Source: Gemmatimonadales bacterium (lineage in GTDB: Bacteria > Gemmatimonadota > Gemmatimonadetes > Gemmatimonadales > GWC2-71-9). Taken from it: a stretch of 64,000 bases of DNA. Each line of letters opens with the position of its first letter. The stretch's first letter is position 1. Below are positions 23,922 through 62,411 of this stretch, piece by piece. The notes under the pieces were generated by a model that was not told where the DNA came from, did no database searches, and saw only the letters and a program-made list of their open reading frames with translations. The DNA lies in the NCBI GenBank assembly GCA_035280265.1, contig DATEGE010000194.1, positions 486 to 64,485 on the forward strand, in the 5' to 3' direction. The translations under genes and the position numbers were made by a program.

Positions 23922-23961
23922 TTAGGGCGTTTTCGCGACATCGGGGGGCGTTTTTGCGACA
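23922..23961 (-). promoter_or_regulatory. tandem 21-bp-phased motif pair upstream of the 42-aa peptide gene
   Basis: Read on the minus strand: TGTCGCAAAAACGCCCCCC ga TGTCGCGAAAACGCCCTAA. The distal copy abuts or overlaps the AraC start codon. The proximal copy ends about 75 nt before ATG 23846. Confidence 0.5.
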
Positions 23962-24759
23962 ATGCTGGTGCTAGCGGCTGTCCCCGAAGTCCAATACCAC
24001 AAGCTGCGTAGCGCGGCAGCGACGCGGTTTCCCCTGGTGCACGCCCGGGGCTGGACGGACGCCCTCGCGGCGATTCGGGCTCGCCCGGTCGAGCTGGCGG
24101 TGGTCGACCCCCTGCTGATGGGGGTGGCGAGCGCGACCGAGATCGAGCAGTTGCGGAAGATGTTCCCCTCGCTCCCGCTCATCCTCTATACCACGCTCTC
24201 TCCCAAGACGGCGGCAGTACTCCTCGCCCTCGGCTCGACGGGCATCAGCGACATGGTCCTGTTTCGCTACGACGACCACCCCGCCCGGCTGTGCGAGGTG
24301 CTGATGCACGAGGAGGCGCGGTCGGCGTCGCGACAGCTGCTCGATCAGGTCGCTGGCGTGCTCGCGCCGCTGCCGAGTGAGCTGCGCTGGGTGCTGGAGG
24401 AGGTGCTGCGCGCGCCCGCCGAGCTGCAGACCGTGCAGAAGGTGGCCGCGCGCGCCCGTGTCGATCGCCGCACGTTCGAGCGCTGGTTCGCACGGGTGGG
24501 GCTGCCGTCGCCGCGGCACTTCCTTGCCGCGGCGCGGGTCCTGTACGCCCACCGGCTGCTGCAAGACCCGGGCTTCACCATCGAGGACGTCGCCGAGCGC
24601 CTCGGCTACGCGCAGACGAAGACGCTGCAGGCGCACGCCCGCTCCTACCTGGGGCTGACGGCCGGCGAGATGCGCCTTCGGCTCGAGCCCGCCGAAGCCC
24701 TGGAGCGTGTCGCCCAGGGCTTCATGCCGGTCCGCCAGGCGCGCGCCTCCGCGTCGTGA
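23962..24759 (+). CDS. AraC/XylS-family transcriptional regulator with N-terminal receiver-like domain
   Basis: C-terminal double HTH (RTFERWFARVGLPSPRHFLAAARVLYAHRLL...IEDVAERLGYAQTKTLQAHARSYLG). The N-terminal CheY-like fold lacks the usual N-terminal acidic pair (LVLAAVPE). Confidence 0.8.
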   Translation: MLVLAAVPEVQYHKLRSAAATRFPLVHARGWTDALAAIRARPVELAVVDPLLMGVASATEIEQLRKMFPSLPLILYTTLSPKTAAVLLALGSTGISDMVLFRYDDHPARLCEVLMHEEARSASRQLLDQVAGVLAPLPSELRWVLEEVLRAPAELQTVQKVAARARVDRRTFERWFARVGLPSPRHFLAAARVLYAHRLLQDPGFTIEDVAERLGYAQTKTLQAHARSYLGLTAGEMRLRLEPAEALERVAQGFMPVRQARASAS

Positions 24760-25157
24760 GCGCGGCACCCCTCACCGTCCTCATCGTCGAGGACGAGGCT
24801 CCTCTACGGCAGGTGCTGGAGCGCGTCCTCACCAAGTCAGGCTATCGGGTGCTCGGCGCCGGCAGCGCGGAAACCGCGTACGAGCTGCTCGCCTCGCAGG
24901 TCGCCGACGCCGTGTTGCTCGACGTGCGGCTACCAGCCATGTCCGGCCTGGGACTCTATCTCGCCCTCGTGCACCGCACGCCCGAACTGTCGGGGCGCAT
25001 CGCCATCATGACGGGCGACGCCGACGCTGAGCACGTGCGCGCGTGGCTGGAGCGCAATCCGTGTCCCGTGCTCAAGAAGCCCTTCGACCTGCAACAGATC
25101 CTCGACTGGTTGCGGACGGTGCTTCACGTCCCCAGTCGCGAGCGCGGCAACGCCTGA
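24756..25157 (+). CDS. single-domain response regulator (CheY-like)
   Basis: LIVEDEAPLR...VLLDVRLPAMSG...LKKPF. The GTG start overlaps the AraC stop (GTGA). Confidence 0.8.
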   Translation: MSAAPLTVLIVEDEAPLRQVLERVLTKSGYRVLGAGSAETAYELLASQVADAVLLDVRLPAMSGLGLYLALVHRTPELSGRIAIMTGDADAEHVRAWLERNPCPVLKKPFDLQQILDWLRTVLHVPSRERGNA

Positions 25158-25163
25158 GCCGGC

Positions 25164-25646
25164 ATGGCCGACAAGAGCGTCGAAAAGCTGCGCGCTCTAC
25201 TGAAGAGCTACGAGCAGCGCCGGGCGGGGCAAGCGGAGCTCAAGCCCGCGGTGGACGAAGGTGAACGGCGCCGGCGCGCCTGCGGCGACCGTCTGCAAAA
25301 CGTGGTGCGGTCGGTGCTCCTCACCTTCACCGCCGAGCTGCGGGACGCGGGCCATGAAGCGGCCCTCGACGACCACAGCGAACGGGCGGACGCTTATCCG
25401 TCCGTGGCATTGGTATTCACGCCCCACTCCGCCAGCGGCAACGCGCTCGCCTCGATGCTGGTCTTCAAGTGCGACCCCCGGCGCGGCATCGCGGTCGCGC
25501 GCGACGTGCGCCTGCCGACTTCCAAGGGCCGCGTGGTTTCGACCAGCACCGACCGTTTGGGAACGATGCGGGTGGAAGGCGTGACCACGGAATGGGTGGA
25601 GACCAAGACACTGAGCTTCATCGAGGCGGTACTCAAGGCAAACTAA
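25164..25646 (+). CDS. hypothetical protein
   Basis: 160-aa ORF located 6 nt after the response regulator gene. No family recognised. Confidence 0.5.
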   Translation: MADKSVEKLRALLKSYEQRRAGQAELKPAVDEGERRRRACGDRLQNVVRSVLLTFTAELRDAGHEAALDDHSERADAYPSVALVFTPHSASGNALASMLVFKCDPRRGIAVARDVRLPTSKGRVVSTSTDRLGTMRVEGVTTEWVETKTLSFIEAVLKAN

Positions 25647-25659
25647 GGAGGGATCACGA

Positions 25660-26286
25660 ATGAGGGAACGAGCCGCTGTGTTGCTGATCCTCGTGGCCAT
25701 GCTGTCGTGCGGCGGGGCCCGGCGACCGGCGATCCAGGTACCCCCGCGCCTCGATCTGGCGCCCTACGGACGGCTGGGATTGGTCACCTTCACCGTGGAG
25801 AACGCCAAGGGATCGTTGCACCAGATCGCGACCGAGCGGTTCGCCGAGGAGGTGCTGGCGGCGCAGCCCGGTAGCGAAGTCCTCGAGCTCGGCTCCGCCG
25901 ATACGCTGCTGAAACGGGTGGGCGAGCAGGAGCTGGGGATCGCAGCTGCCCAGGAGCTGGGCAAGCAGCGCGATATCGGCGCGGTGTTCGCCGGTCACCT
26001 CAAGGTGACGAATCCACAGGCGGGCGGCGGGATCGCGGCGCTGGTCACACCCCATCTCGAAGCCACCGTCCGGGTGGATATGAGCGTCCGGCTGCTCTCG
26101 ACCCGCTCCGGCGCCACGTTGTGGCGCTCGAGCGCATGGGCCACGGAAAAGGTCGGCCACGTCGCGCTGGTGGACGGCCAGCTCGACTTTGCGGCGAAGG
26201 ACCCGAAGGAGGCGTACGGGCGGATGGTAAACCGGCTGGTTGCGCTGGTGACCGATGATCTGCGGCCGACCTGGCGGCAGCCGTGA
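25660..26286 (+). CDS. hypothetical lipoprotein
   Basis: Signal peptide plus lipobox (LILVAMLSCG). No family recognised. Confidence 0.55.
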   Translation: MRERAAVLLILVAMLSCGGARRPAIQVPPRLDLAPYGRLGLVTFTVENAKGSLHQIATERFAEEVLAAQPGSEVLELGSADTLLKRVGEQELGIAAAQELGKQRDIGAVFAGHLKVTNPQAGGGIAALVTPHLEATVRVDMSVRLLSTRSGATLWRSSAWATEKVGHVALVDGQLDFAAKDPKEAYGRMVNRLVALVTDDLRPTWRQP

Positions 26287-26344
26287 GGTCGGCCAGGAAA
26301 CCGCCGCGCGGGCCCCGTCAAATCGGGAGTCGCGCGAGTGAGGC

Positions 26345-27241
26345 CTATCGAACCCGCGACAACTCCTCGAACTCCGTTTCCGACAGCTCGAGCGACGCAG
26401 CGCCCATGTTCTCCTCGAGATGCGCCACGCTCGAGGTGCCTGGAATGGGCAGCATCGCGGGCGAGCGCTTGAGCAGCCACGCGATCGCCACCTGCGCGGG
26501 CGTGGCACCGAGCCGCTGGGCGACGCGAGTAAGTGGGCTCTTGGGCCCCGCGAGCCTTCCCGCGGCGAGCGGATTCCACGGCAGAAACGCGAGCCCTTCG
26601 CGAGCGCAGTGCGCCAGCACCGCCTCGTGCTGCCGGTCCGTCAGGCCGTACCGGTTTTGGACCGAGACGATCGGCACCAGCGCGCGCGCCCGCTCGATAT
26701 CCGCCACCGACACTTCCGAGAGACCGATAAAGCGGATCTTCCCTTCTTCCTGAAGACGGATCAGCGTACCCAGCTGATCCGCAAGCGGCACGGCGGGGTC
26801 GATGCGGTGCAGCTGGAACAGGTCGATGAACTCGAGCTTGAGGCGACGTAAGCTGCCCTCGGCGGCGGCGCGCAAGTGTTCCGGACGACCGTTCACGGTC
26901 CAGCGGTCGGGGCCGGGGCGCTCGAACCCCGCCTTGGTGGCGATGACCAGCTCGTCCGGATACGGGTACAGCGCCTCGGCGATCAGCTGCTCGCTCACCG
27001 CCGGACCGTAAGAGTCGGCGGTATCGATGAAGTTCACCCCCAGCTCGACCGCGCGTCGCAGCACGGCGATCGCTTGAGCGCGGTCGCGGGGCTCACCCCA
27101 GATGCCCTTGCCGGTGATGCGCATGGCGCCGAAGCCGAGCCGGTACACCGGGAGCTCGCCGGCCAAGAAGATCGTGCCGCTCTTGGCCGCCGGTGAAACG
27201 TCGGGGGCGCCTGAAAGCGGGGTCCGAGAAGATGTGGGCAT
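26345..27241 (-). CDS. aldo/keto reductase
   Basis: AKR segments [10 protein letters not shown] and [14 protein letters not shown] 27241 chosen; the track's Arg/Pro-rich N-terminal extension to 27532 runs into the ligase gene. Confidence 0.85.
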
Positions 27242-27312
27242 GACTCCCGCTAACACCGAGCGACCCGGCCGGGTTCCGGGAGGGGTGTGGCGGCTCCGCG
27301 GCGGCGGCAGGT

Positions 27313-28836
27313 TCAGTGCAGCTGGCGCACCGCGTCGATGGTATCGGCCTGGTCGGGCCCCTTGTCGGGGCGGTAGCGCACCACGCGTGCGAAGCGCAGG
27401 GCCACTCCACCCCCGTACTGCGAGCTCGCCTGGACTCCGTTGAATGCGACCTCCACCACGAGCTCGGGCCGCACGTGTACGACGTACGCGTCGCGGTGAG
27501 TCTCGCGCGCGAGCAGCTCCGCGGTCTGCCACTCGAGCATCTCATCGGTCATGCCCTTGAACGTCTTGCCCAGCATGACGAACCCCCCGGCGCTCGGATC
27601 GCGAGCGCCGAGATGGAGGTTCGAGAGCCAGCCATGACGGCGGCCGTGCCCCCACTCGGCGGCGAGCACGACGAGATCGAGCGTGTTGGCCGGCTTCACC
27701 TTGAGCCATGCCGCGCCGCGCGCGCCGGCATCGTATGAGGCGGTGAGCGACTTCGCCATCAGCCCCTCATGGCCCGCGGCAATAGCCTGGGCGAAAAACG
27801 CTGCCGCCGCAGTCGCGTCCGCGGTCACCAGCCGCGGTACGCGGTGCCGCTCGTGCACCGCGGCGGCCAGTGTCGTGAATCGCTGGGCATACGGCTGATC
27901 TAAGAGCGCCGCACCGTCGGCGTACAGTATGTCGAAGAAGAAAGCCGTGAGCGGCAGCTCGGCTTGCAGCTTGGCGACGTCGAGCTTGCGGCCGAACCGG
28001 CGCATCGTCAGCTGGAAGGGCAGCGGCGCCCCGTCGGGCCGGAGCGCGATCGCTTCGCCGTCCAGGATGACTTCGTCGAGCGGCACACCGCGAACCGCGG
28101 CGACGACCTCGGGAACCGCGGGCGTGACGTCGTTCAGAAGACGCGAGTAGACTCGCACCAGATCTCCCTTTTTGTGGGCCTGGATGCGTGCGCCGTCGAG
28201 CTTGTATTCGAACGCCGCCTCACCGAGTCGGTTGAGCGCGTCCGCCACGTTGGACGCCGCCTGTGCGAGCATGGGTTGCAGCGGGCGAAACAGCTCGATG
28301 CGAAAGGCGGCGAGGCCGGCCGCGCCCCGCGTGAGGGCGGCATGCGCCACGCGACCGAGATCGCCGGCCAGCATCGCGGCGTGGCGCACCGCGTCCGCGT
28401 CGACGGTGGCCGCCCGCGCCACGGCCTCGGCCATGAGGCCCTCGAGCGCTCCCTGTCGCAGCTCACCGACGCCAAGCCGAACGAGGAATTCCTGCTCCTC
28501 GGCGGTCGCCCGGCCGAACAGCTCACTCAAGAGCCTTCGCTTGACGTCGGCAGACCCCTTACCGCCGGTGGCGGCGAGGCGCTCGAGCAGCGCGTCAACT
28601 GCCGCGAGGGTGAGAGTCGGAGCCGACGCCGTTCCTGCCGAGCGGGCGGCGTGCAGGGTGGCGTATCCGATCCCGATCCGCCCTTGGCGGGGCGTACCGG
28701 AAAGGAACGCGATGGCGGTCTCGATCTCCTGGGGATCGGCGCGCCGCAGCAGCACCGCGAGCTGCTCGATTTTGGCGAGCCGGCCGCGCGTGGCCGCCAC
28801 CTCGCGCGAGGTCTGGACCAAATCGCCGAGCAGCAC
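27313..28836 (-). CDS. ATP-dependent DNA ligase (three-domain Lig1/LigB type)
   Basis: Adenylation motif [11 protein letters not shown] (KxDG), with an N-terminal DNA-binding domain and a C-terminal OB domain. Confidence 0.85.
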
Positions 28837-28842
28837 GGCGGA

Positions 28843-29121
28843 TCAGAGAACGACGTCGCCTCCGGGATCGGTGCGGCGCAACCGCTCCAGGCGCTCCCGC
28901 GCTTGCCGCAACCGCCGTGCCCGCTCGGGATCGTCGATCGTGGCGGTCGACCACTCCGGCTCACCGCTCGCCGTCAGCCGCACGCGCAGCACCATGCCCG
29001 CCGCCAGCGCCACCGGAAGCGCGCGGCCCGGGATATCCCGGGCGGCGCCGTCGTCGGCCACGAGAACGGCGATCTCGCCCTCCCGCCGATCGACGGTGTA
29101 AAACACCTCGCGCGCGCGCAT
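28843..29121 (-). CDS. DUF3006-like small protein
   Basis: The pattern VDRREGEIAVLVADDG....IP...LP resembles DUF3006. Located 6 nt upstream of the ligase gene. Confidence 0.5.
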   Translation of the reverse strand: MRAREVFYTVDRREGEIAVLVADDGAARDIPGRALPVALAAGMVLRVRLTASGEPEWSTATIDDPERARRLRQARERLERLRRTDPGGDVVL

Positions 29122-29134
29122 GGCTACCGTGAAG

Positions 29135-29578
29135 TTAGCGCGGCGCGCCCCGCGCTGCTGCGAGCTTCGCTTGTTGCTCGGCCGAAAGGGTGTTCTTGAT
29201 CTGGATCAAGAGAGAAATGTGGAGGCGCTTCACCTCTCGCTCCACGCTCAACACCGTGTCAACCTGCGCGAGCGCCGCAGCCTGATCCACCGCCGGCTTG
29301 TCGAGCAGCGCCGCCAGCCGTTGCGATTGCTCCTGCATCCGCCACTGCAGGTCCACGACTTTCCCCTGGAAGTCCTGAATCGCCTTCGTGATCGCGCTGC
29401 GCTGCTCGGGGCGGAGCGCGATGTCCTGTTGGTGCTGCATCACGAGCTCGGGGGGAAAGAGCACCCGCGCGAAGGGATCGTCGGGCGGTTGCGGGGGAGG
29501 CCCCTGTTGCGCGCTCAGGTGGGCGATGGGGACGAGCAGGATGACGGACATACCCAGGCACCAGCAGAGCTTCTTCAC
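29135..29578 (-). CDS. periplasmic Spy/CpxP-family (LTxxQ) protein
   Basis: Signal peptide, a helical Gln-rich sequence, and an LSAEQQAKL motif. Confidence 0.6.
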   Translation of the reverse strand: MKKLCWCLGMSVILLVPIAHLSAQQGPPPQPPDDPFARVLFPPELVMQHQQDIALRPEQRSAITKAIQDFQGKVVDLQWRMQEQSQRLAALLDKPAVDQAAALAQVDTVLSVEREVKRLHISLLIQIKNTLSAEQQAKLAAARGAPR

Positions 29579-29916
29579 AGGATCCTCCGATCGATGGTCA
29601 GCCGGCCGAACCGCGGCATGCTGCGCAGCAGTTCGTCACCGGGGAGCGAGAGCAGGAAATCCGTAGGGGCATGCCACCGGACCGTGGCGAGATCGATTGC
29701 CACGCCCCCGCCCGGCGGGCCGCGTCGCGCAAGCATCAAGACGAGTACTACGCTCACGCCCACCGCCGCCGCCAGCCGCAGCCGGCGGGGGTGGATCGCG
29801 GGGCGCCGTCGCGCCTCCGCTCCGGCGAGTGTCGCCTGGAACGAGGGCGCGCCGACCGTGGCGTCCCGCCGTAGCGCGCCAAAGCGTCCCTTCAGGTCGG
29901 CGTCGTTCTCCATCAT
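29575..29916 (-). CDS. putative anti-sigma factor (single-pass membrane)
   Basis: 113 aa with a central TM helix (AAAVGVSVVLVLML). Overlaps both neighbouring genes by 4 nt and sits directly downstream of the ECF sigma gene. Confidence 0.55.
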   Translation of the reverse strand: MMENDADLKGRFGALRRDATVGAPSFQATLAGAEARRRPAIHPRRLRLAAAVGVSVVLVLMLARRGPPGGGVAIDLATVRWHAPTDFLLSLPGDELLRSMPRFGRLTIDRRIL

Positions 29917-30425
29917 GCCTCGTCTTCCAGCAGCTCCCTGAGCGCGGCCTTGCCACGCGCGTAGTGGGTGCGGGCGGTGCCGAGCGAAACGCCCATCACA
30001 TCCGCGGCCTGCGCGATCGACAGGTCCTCGTAGAACACGAGGTGCAGCACCTGACGCTGTCGCGGCGGCAGCCGCGCCAGCGCCCGCAACAGTCGCGCCG
30101 CTTCATCGTCGCGGGCGAGCGCCGTCGCTGGATCAGGCCGGCCATCCGTTACTTCCGGACCAAGCAACAGCGCGGCGAGCGGAAGCCACCTCCGTAGCGT
30201 CGCCTGGCGCCGCGCTTCCCGCGCCGTCCGCGCGATCACGCCGAACAGGAACGTTCGGAAGCTCGAGCGTCCGTCGAACCGCGCCCGGCCATCGAGCAGC
30301 TTCAGGTAGCTCGCCTGGAGCACGTCTTCGGCGGCTGTGCGCTCCCAGCCGCAGCAGCTCAGCGCCCAGCCGAACGCGGCGGAGTGCAGCCGCTCGAGCT
30401 CTGGCGCGTGGTCGGCGGGGGACAT
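29913..30425 (-). CDS. ECF-type RNA polymerase sigma factor
   Basis: Sigma-70 region 2 (DVLQASYLKL...FRTFLFGVIART) and region 4 (LPPRQRQVLHLVFYEDLSIAQAADVMGVSLGTARTHYARGK). Confidence 0.85.
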   Translation of the reverse strand: MSPADHAPELERLHSAAFGWALSCCGWERTAAEDVLQASYLKLLDGRARFDGRSSFRTFLFGVIARTAREARRQATLRRWLPLAALLLGPEVTDGRPDPATALARDDEAARLLRALARLPPRQRQVLHLVFYEDLSIAQAADVMGVSLGTARTHYARGKAALRELLEDEA

Positions 30426-30469
30426 GGGACCGGGCTCGCTCTCGACTGATGAGTGTCGCCGGAGAGCCG

Positions 30470-30498
30470 ATTATATGACCGGCTGGGTCAGCGTTCGA
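30470..30498 (-). promoter_or_regulatory. sigma-70-like promoter candidate for the ECF sigma operon
   Basis: Minus strand TCGAAC-N17-TATAAT. The -10 element ends about 45 nt upstream of ATG 30425. Confidence 0.35.
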
Positions 30499-31003: not shown

Positions 31004-31019
31004 GAGTCGGCACCCAACG

Positions 31020-45429: not shown

Positions 45430-45469
45430 TGTCGCATTCCCGCCCTGCCGTGCCGCAAAATCACCCTAG
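45430..45469 (+). promoter_or_regulatory. tandem 21-bp-phased motif pair upstream of the coiled-coil gene
   Basis: TGTCGCATTCCCGCCCTGC cg TGCCGCAAAATCACCCTAG. The proximal copy ends 79 nt before ATG 45549. Confidence 0.5.
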
Positions 45470-45548
45470 AGCCGCGTCGTGGGGCGGCTCAGATTACCAC
45501 GGGGATCGCTGCACCAGTCTCCCACACCTACTCGGGGAGCGAAGCATC

Positions 45549-45896
45549 ATGTCATCGGGAAGCGTCCAGATCATCGTCGCCGTGATCGGCGTCGCCGGCT
45601 CGATCGCCGTCGCCTACATCACTACCGGCGCCACGTTCGAGGCCAAGCTGAGAGCGAACGCAGCGAGCATCCACCAGCTGCGTGATTCAGTTCGGGGCGT
45701 CGCGACCCAGCTCGGCGGGCAGGTGCGCCATGCGGAAGAACAGATCACCCACCTCATCGCGAGACTCGATTCGGCGCGGACGGGCGTGGACACGCTCACC
45801 AAACAGGTCAAGACGGTGGGCGCGCAGGTCCAGCGGCTACACCTGAATCCCGCTGTGTTCGAGCACCTCCAGCCGCCGAGAAAACCCGATGATTGA
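45549..45896 (+). CDS. membrane-anchored coiled-coil protein
   Basis: 115 aa starting at ATG 45549 (GGGGAG upstream). N-terminal TM helix IIVAVIGVAGSIAVAYITTG followed by a heptad-like helical region. The tandem regulatory motif lies 79 nt upstream. Confidence 0.55.
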   Translation: MSSGSVQIIVAVIGVAGSIAVAYITTGATFEAKLRANAASIHQLRDSVRGVATQLGGQVRHAEEQITHLIARLDSARTGVDTLTKQVKTVGAQVQRLHLNPAVFEHLQPPRKPDD

Positions 45897-53263: not shown

Positions 53264-53276
53264 GGAGGACACGATC

Positions 53277-54260: not shown

Positions 54261-54295
54261 CGGGCGCCTACCGACCGGGTTCGGCCTTTCCAGCC

Positions 54296-54335
54296 TGTCG
54301 CGTTTCCGCCCCTCGGTGCCGCGAAATCGCCCTAG
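54296..54335 (+). promoter_or_regulatory. tandem 21-bp-phased motif pair upstream of the dihaem cytochrome genes
   Basis: TGTCGCGTTTCCGCCCCTC gg TGCCGCGAAATCGCCCTAG. The proximal copy ends 61 nt before ATG 54397. Confidence 0.5.
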
Positions 54336-54396
54336 TATCTCGTCGCGCACCTCCGAGATTTGTTGTCGGACGCTGATCCGCGCAACGAGGTGATCT

Positions 54397-56538
54397 ATGG
54401 CCACCGATTCGCCGGTCCAGTTCGATCCCCGATCGGTCACCCGCATGTCCCGCGTCGCGCTGGACAATTTCTTCCGCCGAAGTCCCCCCGGACCGATTCC
54501 CGCCGGGCGCGCTCGGGGGACGGCGATCGTTTTCCCCGGGTCGGCGTTCACGGGTATCCTGGCGTCGCTGGCGCGCGCGCTGTTCTGGCAGGGGAAGGTC
54601 TTCACCCCGGAATCCGGCGACCTGCGCAATCTGATCACGCCGTTCGGAGTCCGGGCAATCCGCGCGAAGGTGTACCAAGACGAGAGCTGGTTTGCCAGCG
54701 GGCCGGCAATCATCCTCGACTACTCTCAGACGTCCTTCGTGGCACGGAAGATCCGCGATGAGATCCGCCTCGTGAGCCAGGGTGTCTATCTGGGTCAGGT
54801 TTACTGGGGCAAGCGCCGTATCGCACTGTTCATGCTGCAGTTCCCCACTGACACGCCCGCGCCGAGCCCTCTCGCTGGGGGACGATCGACGGCGACGCTG
54901 TCCGGTGTCGGTGTACTGCTGCAAGGCGTGTGGACGAGGTTTCTGCAGGCAAGCCGCTGGATCGGCGTCACCGTGCTCGCCTCATTGCTGATCGGCGGTG
55001 CCTATGTCTGGGCGCGACTCCGTGACGATCGGCCCGTCACCTACGTCGAGACCCGCGAGCACTTCAAGTATGGCTCGACCGGCGGAGAACGGGGTTGGGG
55101 GACCCATCTCGGGTTTGGGATCCCCTACTGGGTCTGGATCGCGCTGCCCGAACTGTTTCCGGAGTACCTGCCCGACCGCCAGCGCGGGAACGGCTACACG
55201 TCGTTCGGCATGATCTACGAGGATGGGAAGGATCCGCGCTTCGACCTACCGATCGGCATGTCGAGGCGGCGTGTCCAGGGCATCGATCGCGTGTACTTCA
55301 ACTGCGCGGTGTGTCACACGGGCTCGGTACGCCCGGCGCGCGGTGCGCCCCGCGAGGTCGTACTCGGCATGCCGGCCAACACGTTCAACCTGGGCGCGCT
55401 CGCGCAGTTCCTCAATAAGGCCGCGGGGGACTGGAAATTTCGGGCGACGCGCATCATGCCTCGGATCGAAGACCTGGAGGCCCAGCGCGCCGAACAGCCT
55501 CGCTCCCAAAACATTCCCCGACCCAGGCCGTTCAGTCCGGTGGACCGCTTCGTGTTCCGCTACCTCGGCGTCATGTTGCTGCGCGAGCAGCTCCTCACCC
55601 TTACGTCCCGGCTCTCGTTTCTCCGGCTCGACACGTGGGGCCCGGGGCGCGTCGACACGTTCAATCCCCCCAAGGCGCTGCTCGGGTTCCCGATGGAGCG
55701 GGCGCCGGAGCAGGAGAAAGTGGGCGTTGCGGCGTTTCCGGCCGTGTGGAATCAGCAGTGGAAGGAAGGTATGCAGCTCCATTGGGACGGGAACAACACG
55801 AGGGTGGATGAGCGCAACTTGAGCGCGGCGTTCGGGACCGGGGCTACGCCCACGACGCTGGACAAGGCGAGCGTGCTGCGTACCGCCGGCTTCTTGTGGG
55901 ACAAGGCGCGTCCTCCCGCCTTTCCAGCGGGCTACATCCGAGCCGACCTCGCGGCGCGGGGCGAGCCGTTGTATCGCCGGCTGTGCTGGTCCTGCCACGG
56001 CAATGGGCAGCCCCCGTTCCACACGCCTGGCGACGGCAGCCTCGTGGGCATGGTGACGCCGCTCGCCACCCTCGGCACGGACCCGGCCCGACTCGACTCA
56101 TACACGCGCGTCCTTGCGGCCGCGCAGAACTCCTTATACGCGGGGTTCCCGGCCGACGAGGAATGGTGTCGGGAGCGCCCGCGAGATGTGGCGCGCTGCT
56201 ACCCCGCGCGATTCAGCCATTTCCGCAAAACCAACGGTTACGCGAATGTGCCGCTCGACGGCCTATGGCTGCGAGCGCCCTACCTCCATAACGGCTCCGT
56301 GCCCGACCTGCAGGCGTTGCTCGAGCCGGCGCACGCGCGGCCCGCCGTCTTCTATACCGGCTACGACGTGTACGATTACCGGCGCGTCGGCTTCATCACG
56401 CAGGGACCAGACGCCGAGCGGTATGGGTGGCGATTCGACACGAACGTGCGCGGCAATGGCAACAGCGGTCACGAGTTCGGGACGAGCCTCTCGGGTGCCG
56501 ACAAGGCGGCGCTGATCGAGTACCTGAAGACGTTCTAA
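54397..56538 (+). CDS. membrane-anchored dihaem c-type cytochrome, CCP/MauG-like, with extra cytoplasmic N-terminal domain
   Basis: Two CxxCH motifs (CAVCHTG, CWSCHGNG) and a LRAPYLHNGSVPDLQALLEP segment like the conserved APY(F/L)H(D/N)GS..TL of cytochrome c peroxidases. One TM helix (WIGVTVLASLLIGGAYVWARL) follows a ~165-aa N-terminal domain. Paralog of 56579..58177. Confidence 0.6.
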   Translation: MATDSPVQFDPRSVTRMSRVALDNFFRRSPPGPIPAGRARGTAIVFPGSAFTGILASLARALFWQGKVFTPESGDLRNLITPFGVRAIRAKVYQDESWFASGPAIILDYSQTSFVARKIRDEIRLVSQGVYLGQVYWGKRRIALFMLQFPTDTPAPSPLAGGRSTATLSGVGVLLQGVWTRFLQASRWIGVTVLASLLIGGAYVWARLRDDRPVTYVETREHFKYGSTGGERGWGTHLGFGIPYWVWIALPELFPEYLPDRQRGNGYTSFGMIYEDGKDPRFDLPIGMSRRRVQGIDRVYFNCAVCHTGSVRPARGAPREVVLGMPANTFNLGALAQFLNKAAGDWKFRATRIMPRIEDLEAQRAEQPRSQNIPRPRPFSPVDRFVFRYLGVMLLREQLLTLTSRLSFLRLDTWGPGRVDTFNPPKALLGFPMERAPEQEKVGVAAFPAVWNQQWKEGMQLHWDGNNTRVDERNLSAAFGTGATPTTLDKASVLRTAGFLWDKARPPAFPAGYIRADLAARGEPLYRRLCWSCHGNGQPPFHTPGDGSLVGMVTPLATLGTDPARLDSYTRVLAAAQNSLYAGFPADEEWCRERPRDVARCYPARFSHFRKTNGYANVPLDGLWLRAPYLHNGSVPDLQALLEPAHARPAVFYTGYDVYDYRRVGFITQGPDAERYGWRFDTNVRGNGNSGHEFGTSLSGADKAALIEYLKTF

Positions 56539-56578
56539 TGGCACGCGCAGGCGCGATACGCGTGGGGAGGTTCGGGCC

Positions 56579-58177
56579 GTGATGCATGACGAGAGCCGGA
56601 CGAACGGCTGGAAGCGCCGCGTGGGCCGTATCCTGATCGTGCTCCTCTTGATTGCCGCGCCACTCGCGGGCTTGGCATGGTACAAGTTCTTCCGGGAATT
56701 GCCTCAGCCAAAGGCGATCACCGAGGATCCCGAGACGAACTTTCTCTACGGGTCAATCGGCTCCGAAAACCAAGCGGGTATCCCATACTGGATCGTGGTG
56801 GTGTTGCCCCGGATCTTCGACGACATGTTGCCCGGTCCCGGCGGCTACGCCTCGCTCGGCCTCCCGTGGAAAGAGGGGGTCGAGCTGCCAGCCGGCTTCT
56901 CCAAGAAGACCGTCGGCTTTCCGCGGGTCGGCTTCAATTGCGCCCTGTGCCACGCCACGCAGTACCGCACGGCGCCTGACGCGACCCCGACGATCGTCGC
57001 CGCCGGCGGCAGCAACACGGCGGACATCCAGGGACTGCTCGAGTTCCTCAGTCGGGCTGCAAACGATTCCCGCTTTGGATCCGAGACGATCATCGCCCAG
57101 ATCGACGTGGCGTATCGGCTGAGCTGGCTGGATCGGCTGCTCTACAAATTCGTGTTCATCCCGATCACCAAGAAGCGCCTGCAACAACAGGGGCGGTCCT
57201 TCGCCTGGGCCGCCCACCGGCCGCGTTGGGGCCCGGGCCGTGACGCGCCGATGAATCTGACCAAATTCAACTTCCTCGGGCTGCCCGTGGACTCGAGTGT
57301 CGACCACACCGACTTCCCGGCGATCTGGAACCTGCAGACGCGGGTGCAGGCCGGCCGAACGTGGCCCGGTGACGACGACGCGCTCACCGGGGATTGGTCG
57401 AAGGTCTCCGGCTACCGGCCCCGCCTGATGCTGATGAACCTCGATGGCGCAACGACATCGTTCCGCTCCGTGATACTCGATTCGGGTCTCGGACTCACTT
57501 CGCGCAGCTCTCCGTTCTTCCTTCGGCGCATGACGGAGCTCGAGACGTGGCTTCTAAAGCTGCCTCCGCCGAAGTATCCGCTGCCGGTGGATTCGGCCAC
57601 CGCGACGCGGGGCAAGGTGGTGTTCGAGCAACAATGCGCCATCTGCCACGCCAGCGGACGTGACAACCGCCTGGGCACCGTTATCCCGCTGCCAGAGATC
57701 GGGACCGACCCGGAGCGGGCGAACGCCTGGACGCAGCAGGCGGCCGACAGCGCTAACCGAGCCGTCCGCGACCAATTCGGGATTCATCGAACGCCGATGG
57801 TGAAGCCCGAGGCGGGCTACGTCGCCCTCCAACTGGACGGGATCTGGCTGCGCGGGCCCTATCTACACAACGGCTCCGTGCCCACGGTGCGTGCCCTGCT
57901 CGAGCCCGAGGAGCGGCGGCCCAAGGCGTTCTATCGCGGGTACGACGTCCTGGATCAGCGGAACCTCGGATTCGTATCCCGGCGCTGCACCGAACACTTC
58001 GCGGAGGCGCCCACCGGCGGCCGGTCGGGCGAGTCCCAATGGGGATGCATGCCCGACACCGACGGCTGGCGATACGACACGGCGGAGCGTGGGAACAGCA
58101 ATCGAGGTCACCGCTACGGGATCCGCCTGAGCGACGCTCAGAAGGCCGAGCTGGTGGAGTACCTCAAGACGTTCTGA
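56579..58177 (+). CDS. membrane-anchored dihaem c-type cytochrome, CCP/MauG-like (paralog)
   Basis: N-terminal TM anchor (ILIVLLLIAAPLAGLAWY), two CxxCH motifs (CALCHAT, CAICHAS) and LRGPYLHNGSVPTVRALLEP. Collinear similarity to 54397..56538 (GIPYW..V.LP.IF, FNCA.CH, KAELVEYLKTF / KAALIEYLKTF). Confidence 0.6.
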   Translation: MMHDESRTNGWKRRVGRILIVLLLIAAPLAGLAWYKFFRELPQPKAITEDPETNFLYGSIGSENQAGIPYWIVVVLPRIFDDMLPGPGGYASLGLPWKEGVELPAGFSKKTVGFPRVGFNCALCHATQYRTAPDATPTIVAAGGSNTADIQGLLEFLSRAANDSRFGSETIIAQIDVAYRLSWLDRLLYKFVFIPITKKRLQQQGRSFAWAAHRPRWGPGRDAPMNLTKFNFLGLPVDSSVDHTDFPAIWNLQTRVQAGRTWPGDDDALTGDWSKVSGYRPRLMLMNLDGATTSFRSVILDSGLGLTSRSSPFFLRRMTELETWLLKLPPPKYPLPVDSATATRGKVVFEQQCAICHASGRDNRLGTVIPLPEIGTDPERANAWTQQAADSANRAVRDQFGIHRTPMVKPEAGYVALQLDGIWLRGPYLHNGSVPTVRALLEPEERRPKAFYRGYDVLDQRNLGFVSRRCTEHFAEAPTGGRSGESQWGCMPDTDGWRYDTAERGNSNRGHRYGIRLSDAQKAELVEYLKTF

Positions 58178-59480
58178 AGCGGACCAGCTTCTCGGGGAAC
58201 GTGAAGGGCACGGGATCGCGAGCCAACACGTCGCAGTGGACGCTGAGACCAGACTCCGCGACTAGCATCGCGGCGGCTCCCTTACAGACGAACAGAATGA
58301 GCTCCCGCCCCGGACAATGGCGCGCGCCGCTCAGGAATACGTTCGGGTAGGCGGCTGCGGCCTTCGCCGGCGTATCCAGCCACCGCTCCGGATGAAAGGC
58401 ATTCGCTGTCTCATCGGCGGCCCGGTCGCGCTGCGTCAGCGAGAAGACGTGGAGGATTTCACTGCCCGGAGGAATGCGGGTGCCCATCATGACGTCCCCC
58501 GCGGGGGCCCGGTGAAACGTGCGGGTGACCGGTGGAAAGAGCCTTCCCGCCTCCAGGAGGCAGGCCTCGAGATAGCGCAATCGATCGATCGACGCGGGTG
58601 CGTCGAGTGGGCCCGCGCCGGCGATCTCGCGGCGCACCCCCGCGAGGACTTCCGGCCTCGACCCGATCAGCGCGAGGCCCCGGGCGAGGAGGTCGGCGCC
58701 GGAGCCTGAAAAGGTGAACATCCAATGCGGCATCTGCTGTAGCAGCGCCTCGGGGTTTCCATCCGCACCGGCCGCTCGCGCGATCCCGAGCAAGCTGGTG
58801 CGCGCCGCGCCGTCGGACCGTTGTCCCCCCTGTCCCGCCAGTCCCCCCCACGCTTGTCGCAGGCTGCCGTACAGCACGCGGAGCCGGCGCCGCTCGATGG
58901 CTCCCCACAGCAGGCGCTTGAGCGGACTCTGCACCAGGCCGAACAACACGCGAATGTCCGCGCTGAGGCGTTCGGGCGCAACGCGCTCACCGAAGACGAT
59001 GTTCAGCATCGCCTGTCCCATGCGGTCGCGAACATCCGCGACCGTCGCGACGGGCCCGGAGAACGCCCGGCGCGCGTGGCCGAGGAACTCACGCTGGAAG
59101 TCGTGCGGCCTCCCCGCGCACAGCACCCGCTCGTTGAAGGGACGCAGTCGCTGCCACGCCGCGTCGTCCGTGATGGTGAGCGCCTGGGGTGCCAGGTAGC
59201 TCATCGCCTTGCGTTTGAGCGTGCCAGCAACGTACGCCGTGGTGCGTGGCTGCCCGGCGAGAATGTGACGAGAGAGATTTTGGTCCGTCACAAGCAACAG
59301 TCGCAATGCGAGGAGATTCAGGACCACATTGGCGCTGTGGTAGCGCACCGTCAGGTCTTTCATCCAGTCGTGCAACACCAGGCTCGGGTCGAACGAACGC
59401 GGTGCGCGCACGGCCGCCTTCAGTAGCCGTGACCCCAGCCTGCAGAGATCGAGGAAGCTGGTCGTGGGATAAGTATTCAC
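58164..59480 (-). CDS. cytochrome P450 (atypical I-helix)
   Basis: Cys-ligand loop FLSGARHCPGRELILF, an ExxR-like EAGR and a PERF-like FHPERW. The I-helix region FSGSGADLL lacks the (D/E)-T pair. Start placed at GTG 59480, which shares one nt with the upstream stop (TAGTG). The track start at 59534 is an alternative. Confidence 0.75.
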   Translation of the reverse strand: MNTYPTTSFLDLCRLGSRLLKAAVRAPRSFDPSLVLHDWMKDLTVRYHSANVVLNLLALRLLLVTDQNLSRHILAGQPRTTAYVAGTLKRKAMSYLAPQALTITDDAAWQRLRPFNERVLCAGRPHDFQREFLGHARRAFSGPVATVADVRDRMGQAMLNIVFGERVAPERLSADIRVLFGLVQSPLKRLLWGAIERRRLRVLYGSLRQAWGGLAGQGGQRSDGAARTSLLGIARAAGADGNPEALLQQMPHWMFTFSGSGADLLARGLALIGSRPEVLAGVRREIAGAGPLDAPASIDRLRYLEACLLEAGRLFPPVTRTFHRAPAGDVMMGTRIPPGSEILHVFSLTQRDRAADETANAFHPERWLDTPAKAAAAYPNVFLSGARHCPGRELILFVCKGAAAMLVAESGLSVHCDVLARDPVPFTFPEKLVRFRTS

Positions 59481-62263
59481 TACTGCCGCGGCCCGAACGC
59501 CTCGTCCGATTCCGCGCCCTTCCTCGGCTTCCACTCGAGCGAGTAGTACTCCCCACGGTCACGGGCCCAGGGATCGAACGCGTTCACCACCTGGGTCAGC
59601 TCGGGCGTGAGCTCCGGGAGAGTACGGAGCAGTATCCGCTTCAGCGGAGACACTGGCTGGTGCTCGTGACCATTCACGGCTTGTTCCTCGTACGCAGGTG
59701 CCGGGCCGTTGTCATTGACCCAGTCGACGCCGAGGCTCGTGTAGAACTCCGGGCGAAAGCTGGACGTGAAGAAGCGGTCGCTGTAGAGGCGCCGCGAGGC
59801 GTTCAGGATGAAGACCACGAACTGCGTCTCCGAAATGGCGAAACCGTGCGGCCGGGTCGATTCGGCGAGCCAGCCGACCACCGTGTCGATGTCCTCGACG
59901 TTGTCGACCAGCGACCCGTCCGGGTGGCCGAGACAATCGTTGATCGCCCGGCCGCCGGTGTCCAGCTGAGCCAGGGTGATCACCTTGCTACTGTCACACC
60001 GATGTTGTCCATACACCTCGCGCAAGGTGGCTACCAGCTTGGCCTGCGCCTTCCGGTCCTCGGCACTCTCCGAGAATCGCTGGTCGATGAAGTCGTCGAA
60101 GCTCGTGAGTTGGCGCAGCCCGTATTGTCTTCGGAACTCGTTGAAGCGAGGGACGCCTCGCTCGCGATCGCGAATCAAGTCCAGGGCGGCCACGTCGAGC
60201 CTCTGCGTAGGGCTCGTGAGCCGGCGCATGTAGAGGTTCTGCAGGAAGCGCGGGTGGTTCTGGAGCGCGAGCAAGCCGAGGCGTTGCCGACCCATGCTCA
60301 GCGCCCAGTTGGCCAGCCCGCGTTCATGCATGAGATCGGTCGCCTTACCTCGAAACGTCGCGACGACGGGGATCTTCTGCGTGATGTCGTTGGGGTTCGC
60401 GACCTCTCGATATTCGATCAGGTCCGGCACCAAGGGATGGAGCCGGTAGACGGTCACGAACTCTTCCGGGAAGTTGAACGGCGAGCCGAAGTGATTGGCG
60501 CCACCGTTGACATCGTCCGGATTGGAGAGACTCCAATCCGGCTTGTGGCTGCCCAGTCCGAAGATCCCGGGGCCGGACGCAAGGATCGAATACCACGTGT
60601 TGGCGTCGCTGGCGGACGCTGATCGGCCCAGGTGCGACACCGCGGCGGCGAGTGCCTCCGAGACCCCGCTTTCCTTCCCCAGGAGCCCGTTCCAATTGCT
60701 GTTCATCCCGCGGTACAGAGGCTCGTCGTACAGCAGCTGCGTCGTCCACTCGATCGTGTGGATCTTCGCGATCTCCGCGGCAACGACGAGGCGCGCGGCC
60801 TCGAACAGCTCGTCGGGCGTGACATCGCGATACCGGATCACGTGCTGCGGGTTCGCAGGGTCGCGCAGTCCCGAATCCCCGTCGGGGTTCTGGGCCGTGC
60901 GGCGACGGAACTCGTCCACGAACTGATTGTGCTCGCGAGCGAAGACGTTGTGAAAGAAACTCAGCCCGATCGTCCAGTTGTCGGGGAACCCGGTGGCCTC
61001 TTGACCCGCCCAGTCCGGGTTCATCGGATCGAAGGGCGCCAGCACCGGGAGATACCCCTGCCGATCACCGGCGGCAGTCGCCGTCGGGACCGCGATCATC
61101 AGCAGCCGGGCAGGATCGCGCGGATCGCGCTTCACACGCAATCGGGAGCGTTGATCGTAGCCGTACAGTTGCGACGCGTCCCACCACGCCGTGTTCGTGT
61201 TCCGGAAGGTCTTCGGTGCCCGCGCCAGGTACTCGCGGCCGTCGCGCACGAACCGGCCGGGTGCGCTCGTGTCGCCCACGTAAGCCCGCTCCATCGCGTC
61301 GCCGGGCCGGCACCCGAGGCGTCCGGCCTCCGCCGCCGAGAGCGCGCAGCCCACGTTCATGTACTCCGAGCTGTTGTGCCCCTCTTCGAGGTGCGAGAAC
61401 CAGTCATGGGTCATGAACTGGATCCAGAACGCCGCCAGCACATTGAAGAACGGGGCCTTCTTGTAATCGCAATTGGCGTCCTTGGCGAACCTCGGCTTGC
61501 CGTAGCCATCCGCACAGGCTGCGCTGTCGGATTGGGCTCGCGTAAACAGCTTGCGACTGATCACCTGCGGATCCGGCCTCATCAGGCTCAACCGGTTGCC
61601 GTGACGGTTGCGGGTGATCTCGTTCAGGCCGGCATCTGGAAACGTGGTCTCGAACTCCACGTTTCGGGCGAACGGTGTTCCCGTGGACCCCATGAGGGGG
61701 TTGCGGATGTCGTTACAGATCCCGGTGAGCGTACGGGATCGGATGAGCGCGGCCCGGCAGAGCTGCGGTCCGCTGCCGCCTACCTCACGGTAGTTGGGAT
61801 GAGAGGGGGGCAGACGCATCTCGGGCCACGTCTTGAGCGCCGGCCCCTCGGTGCTGTCGCGACCCATCCGATACTGCGGGAAGGTGCCGTTGTTGTCGAA
61901 CAGGTTGAACTTGATGAGCTCGACGCGCTCGTACTCCAGGTCCACCAGCGCGCCGTTAACGCCTCGCATGTTTCGCGTCGACCAGAACGACTTCGTCGCA
62001 GCGTCCCCAGCACCGTAGTAGTTCGCCCAATCGACCCACGGCACGCCGCGCCGCTGCACCGCGGTTTCGCCGCCGCGGCACCGGGCGGTGCTCGATTGCA
62101 CTTTGGCTTGGAATCGATGGTCGCGACTCGCCGCGATGGGCCGCGCGCCGCTGCTGATATCATCGACGCAGCCCATGAGACTCGAGGCCACGCCCTTGGT
62201 CCTGTCGCAGGATGCCAGCGCGAGCGCCAGGCCGCCGGCCAGGAGACACGGAGTTCCGCGCAT
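59480..62263 (-). CDS. haem fatty-acid dioxygenase-like lipoprotein (animal haem peroxidase / cyclooxygenase superfamily, alpha-dioxygenase-like)
   Basis: FFNVLAAFWIQFMTHDWFSHLEEG (distal His region, very close to the plant alpha-DOX WIQFMIHDW signature), NTAWWDASQLYG, FPEEFVTVYRLHPLVPD (candidate catalytic Tyr), LIRDRERGVPRFNEFRRQYGL and VEDIDTVVGWLAE. Lipoprotein signal MRGTPCLLAGGLALALASC. ATG 62263 is preceded by GGAGG at 5 nt. Confidence 0.75.
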   Translation of the reverse strand: MRGTPCLLAGGLALALASCDRTKGVASSLMGCVDDISSGARPIAASRDHRFQAKVQSSTARCRGGETAVQRRGVPWVDWANYYGAGDAATKSFWSTRNMRGVNGALVDLEYERVELIKFNLFDNNGTFPQYRMGRDSTEGPALKTWPEMRLPPSHPNYREVGGSGPQLCRAALIRSRTLTGICNDIRNPLMGSTGTPFARNVEFETTFPDAGLNEITRNRHGNRLSLMRPDPQVISRKLFTRAQSDSAACADGYGKPRFAKDANCDYKKAPFFNVLAAFWIQFMTHDWFSHLEEGHNSSEYMNVGCALSAAEAGRLGCRPGDAMERAYVGDTSAPGRFVRDGREYLARAPKTFRNTNTAWWDASQLYGYDQRSRLRVKRDPRDPARLLMIAVPTATAAGDRQGYLPVLAPFDPMNPDWAGQEATGFPDNWTIGLSFFHNVFAREHNQFVDEFRRRTAQNPDGDSGLRDPANPQHVIRYRDVTPDELFEAARLVVAAEIAKIHTIEWTTQLLYDEPLYRGMNSNWNGLLGKESGVSEALAAAVSHLGRSASASDANTWYSILASGPGIFGLGSHKPDWSLSNPDDVNGGANHFGSPFNFPEEFVTVYRLHPLVPDLIEYREVANPNDITQKIPVVATFRGKATDLMHERGLANWALSMGRQRLGLLALQNHPRFLQNLYMRRLTSPTQRLDVAALDLIRDRERGVPRFNEFRRQYGLRQLTSFDDFIDQRFSESAEDRKAQAKLVATLREVYGQHRCDSSKVITLAQLDTGGRAINDCLGHPDGSLVDNVEDIDTVVGWLAESTRPHGFAISETQFVVFILNASRRLYSDRFFTSSFRPEFYTSLGVDWVNDNGPAPAYEEQAVNGHEHQPVSPLKRILLRTLPELTPELTQVVNAFDPWARDRGEYYSLEWKPRKGAESDEAFGPRQ

Positions 62264-62319
62264 GTCAACCTCCGCCATCACCGTCCAGCCCGGAGGTTAG
62301 GGCGTTGGGGGAGCGCGAA

Positions 62320-62359
62320 CAAGGGCGTTTTTGCGGCATCAAGGGGTGGTTTTGCGGCA
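62320..62359 (-). promoter_or_regulatory. tandem 21-bp-phased motif pair upstream of the dioxygenase-P450 genes
   Basis: Read on the minus strand: TGCCGCAAAACCACCCCTT ga TGCCGCAAAAACGCCCTTG. The proximal copy ends 56 nt before ATG 62263. Confidence 0.5.
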
Positions 62360-62371
62360 TGGCGCGACGGC

Positions 62372-62411
62372 TGTCGCACAAACGCCCTACCGTGCCGCAA
62401 AAAAGCCCTAG
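62372..62411 (+). promoter_or_regulatory. tandem 21-bp-phased motif pair upstream of the patatin-like gene
   Basis: TGTCGCACAAACGCCCTAC cg TGCCGCAAAAAAGCCCTAG. The proximal copy ends 52 nt before ATG 62464. Confidence 0.5.

Follow-up and report, generated by a model that had tools for sequence, protein, structure and literature searches.

Five pairs of direct repeats in a 64,000-nucleotide stretch of the Gemmatimonadales contig DATEGE010000194.1 (hereafter the window, meaning this whole stretch) raise the question of whether a regulator reads them and, if so, which one. An earlier note on this DNA had described a motif of about 19 nt that occurs as a tandem pair at five promoters, had taken it for the signature of a dispersed regulon, and had named the AraC-type gene at 23962 as the candidate regulator. 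Our analysis indicates that the element is very probably a tandem activator site, and that the protein family of this AraC-type gene product probably binds it; both conclusions rest on sequence comparison.

Tandem sites in the window and across the lineage

Direct reading of four regions of the window confirmed five tandem pairs at exactly the positions reported earlier. In each pair a 19-nt unit, with the consensus TGYCGC-RAAAnn-RCCCTAG, is present twice in direct orientation, and the start-to-start spacing is 21 nt in all five:

Site 1, 23922..23961 (-), distal copy 23961..23943, proximal copy 23940..23922: TGTCGCAAAAACGCCCCCCGA / TGTCGCGAAAACGCCCTAA, 58.3 bits
Site 2, 45430..45469 (+): TGTCGCATTCCCGCCCTGCCG / TGCCGCAAAATCACCCTAG, 48.6 bits
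Site 3, 54296..54335 (+): TGTCGCGTTTCCGCCCCTCGG / TGCCGCGAAATCGCCCTAG, 47.2 bits
Site 4, 62320..62359 (-): TGCCGCAAAACCACCCCTTGA / TGCCGCAAAAACGCCCTTG, 57.7 bits
Site 5, 62372..62411 (+): TGTCGCACAAACGCCCTACCG / TGCCGCAAAAAAGCCCTAG, 50.8 bits

The scores come from a 40-nt model that was built from sites outside the window alone, with heavy pseudocounts, which avoids circularity. With this model the five sites scored 47-58 bits and all remaining window positions 15 bits or less, so that no sixth site above 15 bits exists anywhere in the window, while 20 simulated second-order-Markov windows peaked at 1.2 bits. A position weight matrix (PWM) made from the ten copies gave these copies 16.7-27.3 bits in the 64 kb, followed by a runner-up of 16.1 bits at 2303-2321 (-) and by nothing else above 12.1 bits. 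The runner-up, TGCCGCGAATACGCTCAAG, was rejected as a chance match, as it lies inside a 473-aa open reading frame (ORF) and has neither a partner 21 nt away nor the CCCTA box. The five-pair pattern in the window is not due to chance. Each pair points to a downstream gene, and the distance from the end of the proximal copy to the start codon was measured as 75, 79, 61, 56 and 52 nt for sites 1-5, agreeing with the range of 52-79 nt proposed earlier; the start codons, at 23846 (-), 45549 (+), 54397 (+), 62263 (-) and 62464 (+), are each preceded by a GGAG-type ribosome-binding site. Site 1 would drive the gene of a 42-aa peptide and also abuts the ATG of the divergent AraC-type gene. Sites 4 and 5 stand back to back, 12 bp apart, and their four copies form an array in which successive centres are separated by 21, 31 and 21 bp; all units of the array would face the same side of the helix, an arrangement in which the two divergent promoters may be occupied either cooperatively or in mutual exclusion.

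The window belongs to a soil-type metagenome contig of 68 kb (ENA ERZ27257080), and two scans extended the search beyond it. One covered 185,579 species-representative genomes with a pattern fitting all five window pairs, and the other covered metagenome contigs, with a gap of 3 to 7 nt allowed between the copies; the collected sites are the matches listed in either scan, and all lineage-wide counts below are of these. The genome scan returned at least 117 stretches, against about one match expected by chance on our own estimate, and the metagenome-contig scan at least 120. More than 240 further tandem pairs were thus collected beyond the window, almost all from Gemmatimonadales metagenome-assembled genomes (MAGs) and soil metagenomes. 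Among the genome-scan matches listed, all but two are real tandem sites; the matches in Luminiphilus and Amycolatopsis look like chance. A handful of sites come from bins that bear the names Acidobacteria, Chloroflexi, Rokubacteria, Stellaceae or Eisenbacteria but are surrounded by typical Gemmatimonadales genes, and these contigs are probably mis-binned. The loci concerned are L059, L071, L076, L098, L109 and L111, some of which also hold the gene cassette described below, and L059 is identical to the Gemmatimonadales locus L021 over about 110 nt around the site.

To describe the pairing, the core TGYCGC-N6-RCCC was counted in the window together with 864 kb of genome loci that had been fetched, where it occurs 274 times. 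Within 120 nt on the same strand, the only spacing found between cores was 21 nt (125 pairs). Among the 24 unpaired cores, the five of full quality each have a slightly degenerate partner 21 nt upstream, and the others, having neither A-tract nor TA, seem to be chance matches rich in G+C; no good single copy was found in this material. Since every full-quality single core has a degenerate partner and the spacing is fixed, pairing is obligatory, at two helical turns ±1 bp. The exact 21-bp phasing claimed earlier holds for all five window pairs, but lineage-wide only for 118 of the 127 sites in the variable-gap metagenome set, in which eight were phased at 20 bp, one at 22 bp and none at 19 or 23 bp.

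Of 124 sites examined for placement, just two are located well within a confident ORF, recognized by high G+C at third codon positions (high GC3), compared with 43.7% of random 40-mers from the same loci (binomial p = 6e-28), and one of the two is a sequence-edge artefact. The earlier note had named a motif equally common inside genes as a refutation of its proposal, and the outcome was the opposite. With gene calls in the fetched loci being heuristic, an ORF with a plausible start was found 24-260 nt downstream, in the pointing direction, at 200 of 252 sites. The idea of a regulon signature is therefore borne out by the further promoters, whose tandem pairs are intergenic and directional.

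The two copies of a pair are unequal. The proximal copy is the better conserved one at all five window sites by PWM, as described before, and also lineage-wide in the columns left free by the search patterns: TA at positions 17-18, which no pattern fixed, is present in 91-99% of proximal but 7-61% of distal copies. The proximal copy is strong at all promoters, with 17.7-18.3 of 19 consensus matches, whereas the distal copy has 16.3 of 19 matches at peptide promoters and 13.0 of 19 at the others (p = 1e-23). By analogy, such graded affinity, with the best sites at the peptide promoters, fits the proximal-first cooperative occupancy of XylS.

Promoter geometry and the candidate regulator

An ungapped alignment of 119 sites, anchored on the first base of the distal copy, brought out a hexamer cAnnTT at positions 61-66, which was imposed by no search pattern and is often followed by GG. 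In this alignment A62 is conserved at 84%, T65 at 68% and T66 at 83%. The 69 non-peptide promoters, which are not mutually orthologous, gave 74% for A62 and 72% for T66, with hexamers such as TACTGT, TAACCT, CAGATT and CATGTT, and the metagenome set gave 80% and 84%, the three sets being partly independent. A2 and T6 are the most conserved positions of the sigma-70 -10 hexamer. The hexamer lies 20±1 bp downstream of the proximal copy, and positions 41-60 carry no information in the 119-site alignment, which means that there is no -35 element. The corresponding hexamers in the window are:

Site 1, 23901..23896 (-): CAGCTT, 20 nt after the proximal copy
Site 2, 45490..45495 (+): CAGATT
Site 3, 54355..54360 (+): GAGATT, 19 nt after the proximal copy
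Site 4, 62299..62294 (-): TAACCT
Site 5, 62431..62436 (+): CAACTT, 19 nt after the proximal copy

Weak -10-like hexamers had been pointed out before. They are indeed present, at 19-20 nt rather than 19-24 nt from the proximal copy, and GAGATT, CAGATT, CAACTT and TAACCT were correctly picked, while the phased hexamer of site 1 is CAGCTT and not TTAGCT. If the hexamer is taken as the -10 element, the proximal repeat would span about -51 to -33 and the distal repeat about -72 to -54, and the last three bases of the proximal repeat would fall on the upstream edge of a would-be -35 element. Direct repeats at 21 bp, a phased -10-like hexamer and no -35 element together match XylS at Pm, in keeping with the AraC/XylS-type layout suggested earlier. 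The phased hexamer, c-A-n-n-T-T and often G-G, also constitutes a first -10 consensus for Gemmatimonadales promoters. It somewhat resembles the TAnnTTTG -7 element of Bacteroidota, a phylum placed near Gemmatimonadota in some phylogenies.

The question of which protein reads the sites led to the genes around site 1, which form a cassette:

22426..23694 (+): TPR superhelix protein, 422 aa, convergent with the peptide gene, no evident signal peptide by inspection
23718..23846 (-): pre-peptide, 42 aa, secreted or lipoprotein-like, MSRSLRTLVALLIVSFALGASAC followed by ADATGPSHACDYVGSNTCK; core regulon target
23962..24759 (+): candidate regulator, 265 aa, degenerate receiver fold (1-120) and AraC-type domain with a pair of helix-turn-helix (HTH) motifs (about 140-240)
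24756..25157 (+): stand-alone receiver, 133 aa, canonical (EDE, D56, T, K-P), overlapping at its start with the AraC-type gene's stop

The AraC-type protein matches Pfam HTH_18 over residues 162-238 with 53.1 bits (cut-off 33.6), and the DNA-binding domain of AdpA (3w6v) aligns to residues 122-237, covering both HTH motifs, with E = 2.5e-11. Its AlphaFold2 model, with a predicted local distance difference test score (pLDDT) of 87, consists of a (beta-alpha)5 fold, in which strands 2-6, 25-27, 43-48, 73-77 and 95-100 alternate with helices, followed by seven helices between residues 139 and 240 (pLDDT about 90). In Foldseek comparison the N-terminal half superimposed on the receivers of PhoB, PhoP and VicR with TM scores of 0.67-0.78 and root-mean-square deviations of 2.5-3.7 Å. 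D49 and T77 of this domain are invariant, but the phosphorylation pocket is incomplete: there is no conserved acidic pair after beta-1, where residues 7-10 vary, and H106-P107 stands for the Lys-Pro after beta-5. On these residues, the N-terminal half is an atypical receiver, for which ordinary phosphorylation is improbable, whereas the neighbouring 133-aa receiver has all four pocket features. The family comprises more than 850 clusters at 90% identity and bears generic names only, such as 'AraC-like DNA-binding protein' or 'helix-turn-helix domain-containing protein [Gemmatimonadales bacterium]'. Whichever two members are compared, conservation of the DNA-binding domain exceeds that of the receiver-like part (for example 0.79 versus 0.53 for 63% overall identity), which is what a box common to the whole family would lead one to expect.

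The order of the cassette is TPR gene and pre-peptide gene facing each other, then the tandem site, and then the AraC-type gene and the stand-alone receiver gene, both leading away from the site. Searching with the window proteins by tblastn, we found this cassette kept in 49-52 fetched loci, with AraC-type identities of 48-89%, and it recurs in independent assemblies. The AraC-type protein is the sole DNA-binding protein of the cassette, and the tandem site lies in its upstream intergenic region in 51 loci. The gene at 23962 thus remains a well-founded candidate regulator, having a true two-HTH domain and linkage to the site in all of these loci. The proposal of one regulator needs some loosening: a shared box and a linked regulator are there, and a small family sharing one box is possible in view of paralogous cassettes. 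Several MAGs hold two such cassettes with different peptides and the same DNA box, namely L028 and L108 (DASZCN01), L073 and L106 (QHUC01), L049 and L116 (QHTT01), and L003 and L040 (DASWCE01); either paralogous systems converge here on a common regulon, or strains are mixed within the bins.

The regulator gene itself sits unusually close to the site. In this clade 0-4 nt separate its ATG from the distal copy, in others about 20-30 nt, and it has no Shine-Dalgarno sequence (about 18 loci; 23943-23964 in the window). As the ATG lies at the distal copy, the promoter of the regulator gene must overlap the sites, making autoregulation likely. The regulator mRNA could be leaderless, or the gene could be autorepressed. 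For a leaderless transcript, the distal copy read as its reverse complement offers GATTTT, six nt before the ATG, as a -10 element in some clades; this does not fit in the window, where the sequence is GTTTTT, and the distance from ATG to site differs among clades.

Taken together, these features suggest that the elements are probably head-to-tail sites for an AraC/XylS-type activator, namely the 23962-24759 protein, close paralogues of it, or both. Each 19-bp repeat would be bound by a single monomer, whose two HTH motifs would contact the boxes TGYCGC and (R)CCCTA, which lie about one helical turn apart with the A-tract between them, and two monomers placed 21 bp (two turns) apart would share one face of the DNA. 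The proximal monomer would sit where sigma region 4 would otherwise contact a -35 element and would recruit RNA polymerase by class II activation, and the weaker distal repeat would be filled cooperatively. The cassette partners and the kinases of the regulon are candidates for control of the regulator. The module is common to the order Gemmatimonadales, and the pre-peptide gene divergent from the regulator would be its core target of highest affinity.

Several points weigh against this assignment. Some motif columns were fixed by the search patterns, so the conservation figures are valid for the free columns only. The cassettes descend from one or few ancestral arrangements and therefore amount to few independent observations of linkage, and the site may be a feature of the peptide promoter that a factor from another locus reads. 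Given the paralogous cassettes, the protein that acts at the four non-cassette promoters of the window cannot be assigned. The receiver-like domain, without acidic pair and Lys, does not indicate the input signal, and the box sequences differ from every AraC-family box known to us.

Part of this reserve carries over into the best-surviving alternative, in which another DNA-binding protein, for instance a response regulator fed by the target histidine kinases, reads the sites and the AraC-type gene is a regulon member or a bystander. In its favour, the evidence of linkage traces back to a single inherited cassette, two-component proteins abound in the regulon (53 of the 200 called targets), and OmpR/PhoB-type regulators use direct repeats too. 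However, a 19-bp two-box unit every 21 bp is the AraC/XylS pattern and not the 10-11-bp repeat of winged-helix proteins, no other DNA-binding protein is encoded in the cassette, and the arrangement has outlasted divergence to below 50% identity; we consider this alternative unlikely. The same AraC-type protein might instead use the sites as repression operators or, in a weaker form, activate the targets and repress its own divergent gene. The position of the distal copy so close to the regulator ATG, with a regulator promoter that must overlap the sites, speaks for this, and autorepression of the regulator gene is likely. At the target promoters, however, the sites lie wholly upstream of the -10 element, there is no -35 element and the spacing up to the -10 is held within ±1 bp, whereas repressors need no such phasing and usually cover the -10 element or the start site, which makes operators of repression very unlikely.

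The strict distance to the hexamer also raises the possibility that the element is part of the promoter itself and has no dedicated factor: an alternative sigma factor might recognize it, or its A-tracts might make it an UP-like or curved-DNA element. The A-tracts are phased at two helical turns, and the contig carries a gene for an extracytoplasmic function (ECF) sigma factor. Yet CCCTA ends 20 bp before the -10 hexamer, compared with a usual -35 spacer of 16-18 bp, sigma factors do not require a direct-repeat duplication, and the G+C-rich boxes are conserved at the 99% level, unlike UP elements; we find such a promoter element highly improbable. Finally, a dispersed repetitive or mobile element or a structured RNA, which the many and highly alike copies per genome might bring to mind, deserves practically no credence, as the shared stretch is only 40 bp long with unrelated flanks at paralogous sites, is always oriented to a gene at a fixed offset to the -10, consists of direct rather than inverted repeats and so forms no hairpin, and lies upstream of the inferred transcription start, and an Rfam scan of the whole window gave no match.

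Pre-peptide, target genes and the reach of the putative regulon

A tandem activator site read by this AraC family being the preferred explanation, we turned to the genes that the sites would control. Clustering of the proteins downstream of the 252 sites yielded 200 called targets. Among the sites listed, the commonest target is the peptide gene, followed by two-component signalling proteins (the 53 targets above, which include soluble histidine kinases, hybrid kinases and receivers) and TonB-dependent receptors (10 targets). Small zinc-ribbon-like proteins, M1, M16 and S41 peptidases and outer-membrane beta-barrels form further groups, and 47 targets are singletons.

Pre-peptides of the window type stand behind tandem sites as 68 orthologues or paralogues (in the window, L002, L016, L075, L112 and about 60 more loci) and have no match in Pfam or NCBIfam. 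They begin with a signal sequence ending A-x-A (next residue C), continue with ADATGP and end in the most constrained part, a C-terminal unit. In its first form this unit reads C-D-x-x-N-x-N-T-C-(H/R/K), and in a second family, paired with AraC homologues at about 50% identity, it reads E-T-Q-G-S-N-N; four precursors hold the unit twice. A TPR gene adjoins a 41-60-aa pre-peptide gene in 49 loci.

The pairing of a TPR protein with a small pre-peptide recalls the RRNPP systems, and homology was considered. The model of the TPR protein (pLDDT 88.8) was compared by Foldseek, in which NprR (5dbk) ranked 11th with TMq 0.50, Rap-pLS20 (6t46) 27th with TMq 0.53 and RapJ (4gyo) 47th, none of the Rap/NprR matches being better than LGN or Pins, and a profile search of the PDB returned only generic TPR proteins such as LGN and KLC. 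With no sequence match and a fold no closer than that of generic TPR proteins, RRNPP homology was dropped to an analogy. On that analogy we put forward, tentatively and with considerable doubt, that the cassette may be a peptide-based, quorum-sensing-like circuit in a Gram-negative-type soil phylum. The tandem sites would then close a positive-feedback loop on the peptide gene, the holder of the best sites in the regulon, the TPR protein or a soluble histidine kinase would sense the processed C-terminal peptide, and the AraC-type protein would switch on lineage-variable secreted and envelope functions. If this were true, paralogous cassettes with different peptides in one genome would be pherotypes, and the logic would be like that of Rap-Phr or Rgg-SHP, built from unrelated parts outside Bacillota.

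One family of soluble histidine kinases of about 374 aa (HK374) is a target at 15 loci (L015, L026, L027, L032, L038, L047, L054, L061, L064, L069, L084, L089, L100, L104 and L112) and has no member in the window. It is the second most frequent direct target, and its N-terminal domain, an unassigned one, contains Cys residues (REVLRQASVALQGR...WVGCRL...WCVAPV). At L015, L084 and L112 the kinase gene lies beside the cassette, divergent from the TPR gene and with a tandem site of its own. The zinc-ribbon-like family, of 58-136 aa with two CxxC pairs (CPSCRH...CPRC), was found at L018, L093, L121 and two metagenome loci.

Apart from the peptide gene, the window sites face four sets of targets:

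Site 2, 45549..45896 (+): 115-aa coiled-coil protein with a transmembrane helix at its N-terminus
Site 3, 54397-56538 and 56579-58177 (+): two RoxA-like di-haem cytochrome c / peroxidase-type genes, probable operon
Site 4, 59480..62263 (-): 927-aa haem protein of animal-peroxidase / fatty-acid alpha-dioxygenase type
Site 5, 62464..64000 (+): patatin-like phospholipase, continuing past the window end

In the PDB, the 927-aa haem protein comes closest to fatty-acid alpha-dioxygenases from plants (4kvj and 4hhr, E about 1e-56 to 1e-53). It had been labelled dioxygenase-P450 before; the dioxygenase half of that label stands, whereas no P450 domain was detected by Pfam at E = 1, and the C-terminal 406 aa are still of peroxidase/dioxygenase type. 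Among the sites listed, no homologue of the dioxygenase, patatin, RoxA-like or coiled-coil genes of the window was found behind a site elsewhere. Judged by these comparisons, the four sets are lineage-specific members of the regulon, and their being singletons implies a regulon made of a conserved signalling core and lineage-specific outputs. The phospholipase, the dioxygenase-like protein and the two RoxA-like di-haem oxygenases make a coherent set for lipid hydrolysis and oxidation and suggest co-regulated release and oxidation of lipids, which may yield oxylipin-like products or serve to attack polyisoprenoids or lipids of foreign origin.

Gemmatimonadota rank with the most abundant phyla of soil, and we know of no study of transcription regulation in them. 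For the order Gemmatimonadales, the sites provide a promoter model with a -10 consensus cAnnTT(G), an activator-dependent architecture and base-pair-exact geometry, and with it a regulon that can be read from sequence alone in hundreds of uncultured genomes. This regulon would combine a conserved core of mini-peptide, two-component proteins and TonB-dependent receptors with variable outputs of ecological interest. Its candidate master regulator has an unusual receiver, and the putative partners of the regulator, a TPR protein, a receiver and a soluble kinase, are encoded beside it or would be under its control, which also gives a lead toward peptide signalling in a diderm phylum. The 40-bp module and its regulator could become a genetic switch for these hard-to-manipulate bacteria, and the motif has the specificity needed to flag mis-binned Gemmatimonadales contigs, as a marker of contamination.

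Comparison with known systems

The nearest parallel is XylS at the Pm promoter of the TOL plasmid pWW0, in which the repeats are phased at 21 bp and overlap slightly with the -35 region. At Pm, each of two direct repeats has two boxes, which a single monomer reads with its two HTH motifs, occupancy begins at the proximal site and this assists the filling of the distal one, and XylS contacts RNA polymerase at a promoter without a good -35 element (PMC5481539). The Gemmatimonadales sites share the 21-bp phasing, the better proximal copy and the end of that copy 20 bp before a -10-like hexamer. They differ in their boxes, TGYCGC and (R)CCCTA, separated by a 7-bp A-rich spacer in a 19-bp unit, compared with TGCA-N6-GGNTA in a 15-bp unit for XylS. 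The N-terminal domain here is a degenerate receiver fold rather than a benzoate-binding domain, and the regulon appears to comprise tens of promoters across an order, whereas XylS-Pm is a single plasmid operon.

AraC at araI1-I2 (pBAD), RhaS, MelR and the ExsA-type promoters likewise have direct half-sites two turns apart and need exact phasing. The sites described here resemble them in the proximal unit at the -35 region and in repeats two turns apart, but, unlike the AraC I1-I2 type, show no sign of looping or of a distant operator, no sugar-binding cupin, no CRP site and unrelated boxes. Response regulators of the YesN/COG4753 type also join a receiver fold and an AraC-type domain in one polypeptide, and a canonical receiver and histidine kinases belong to the same regulon here; unlike in those proteins, the receiver keeps D49 and T77 without the acidic pair and has His-Pro for Lys-Pro. 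In MxiE-IpgC and InvF-SicA, an AraC-type activator works with a TPR co-activator and the activator box overlaps the -35 region. An AraC-family activator encoded near a TPR protein is found here as well, although outside any type III secretion context and with a TPR protein of 422 aa instead of a class II chaperone of 150 aa.

The Rap-Phr, Rgg-SHP and PlcR-PapR systems of Bacillota resemble the cassette in another way, having a TPR protein gene beside the gene of a Sec-type pre-peptide of about 40 aa. The conserved part of the RRNPP pre-peptides is likewise the C-terminal 7-9 residues, and some precursors hold the unit twice (compare PMC11343458). Shared too are the topology of autoinduction, with the regulator divergent from the peptide gene and the site at the peptide promoter, and the presence of several paralogous cassettes with different peptides per genome, while the peptidases and TonB-dependent receptors in the regulon recall Rap-Phr and Rgg-SHP. 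Rap proteins act on receiver proteins (PMC3601957). In contrast to RRNPP systems, the cassette belongs to a diderm phylum, its TPR protein has no HTH, the DNA-binding protein is separate and of AraC type, and no gene for an Opp-type importer was seen in the cassette; release and sensing of the peptide are here an analogy only. Our literature search found no paper on the motif string or on promoters, AraC proteins or peptide signalling of Gemmatimonadetes. As far as sequence can tell, the architecture of the sites is the class II type already known from XylS-Pm and AraC I1-I2, whereas the box sequence, the subfamily joining an atypical receiver to an AraC-type domain, the order-wide conservation and the peptide-centred cassette appear undescribed.

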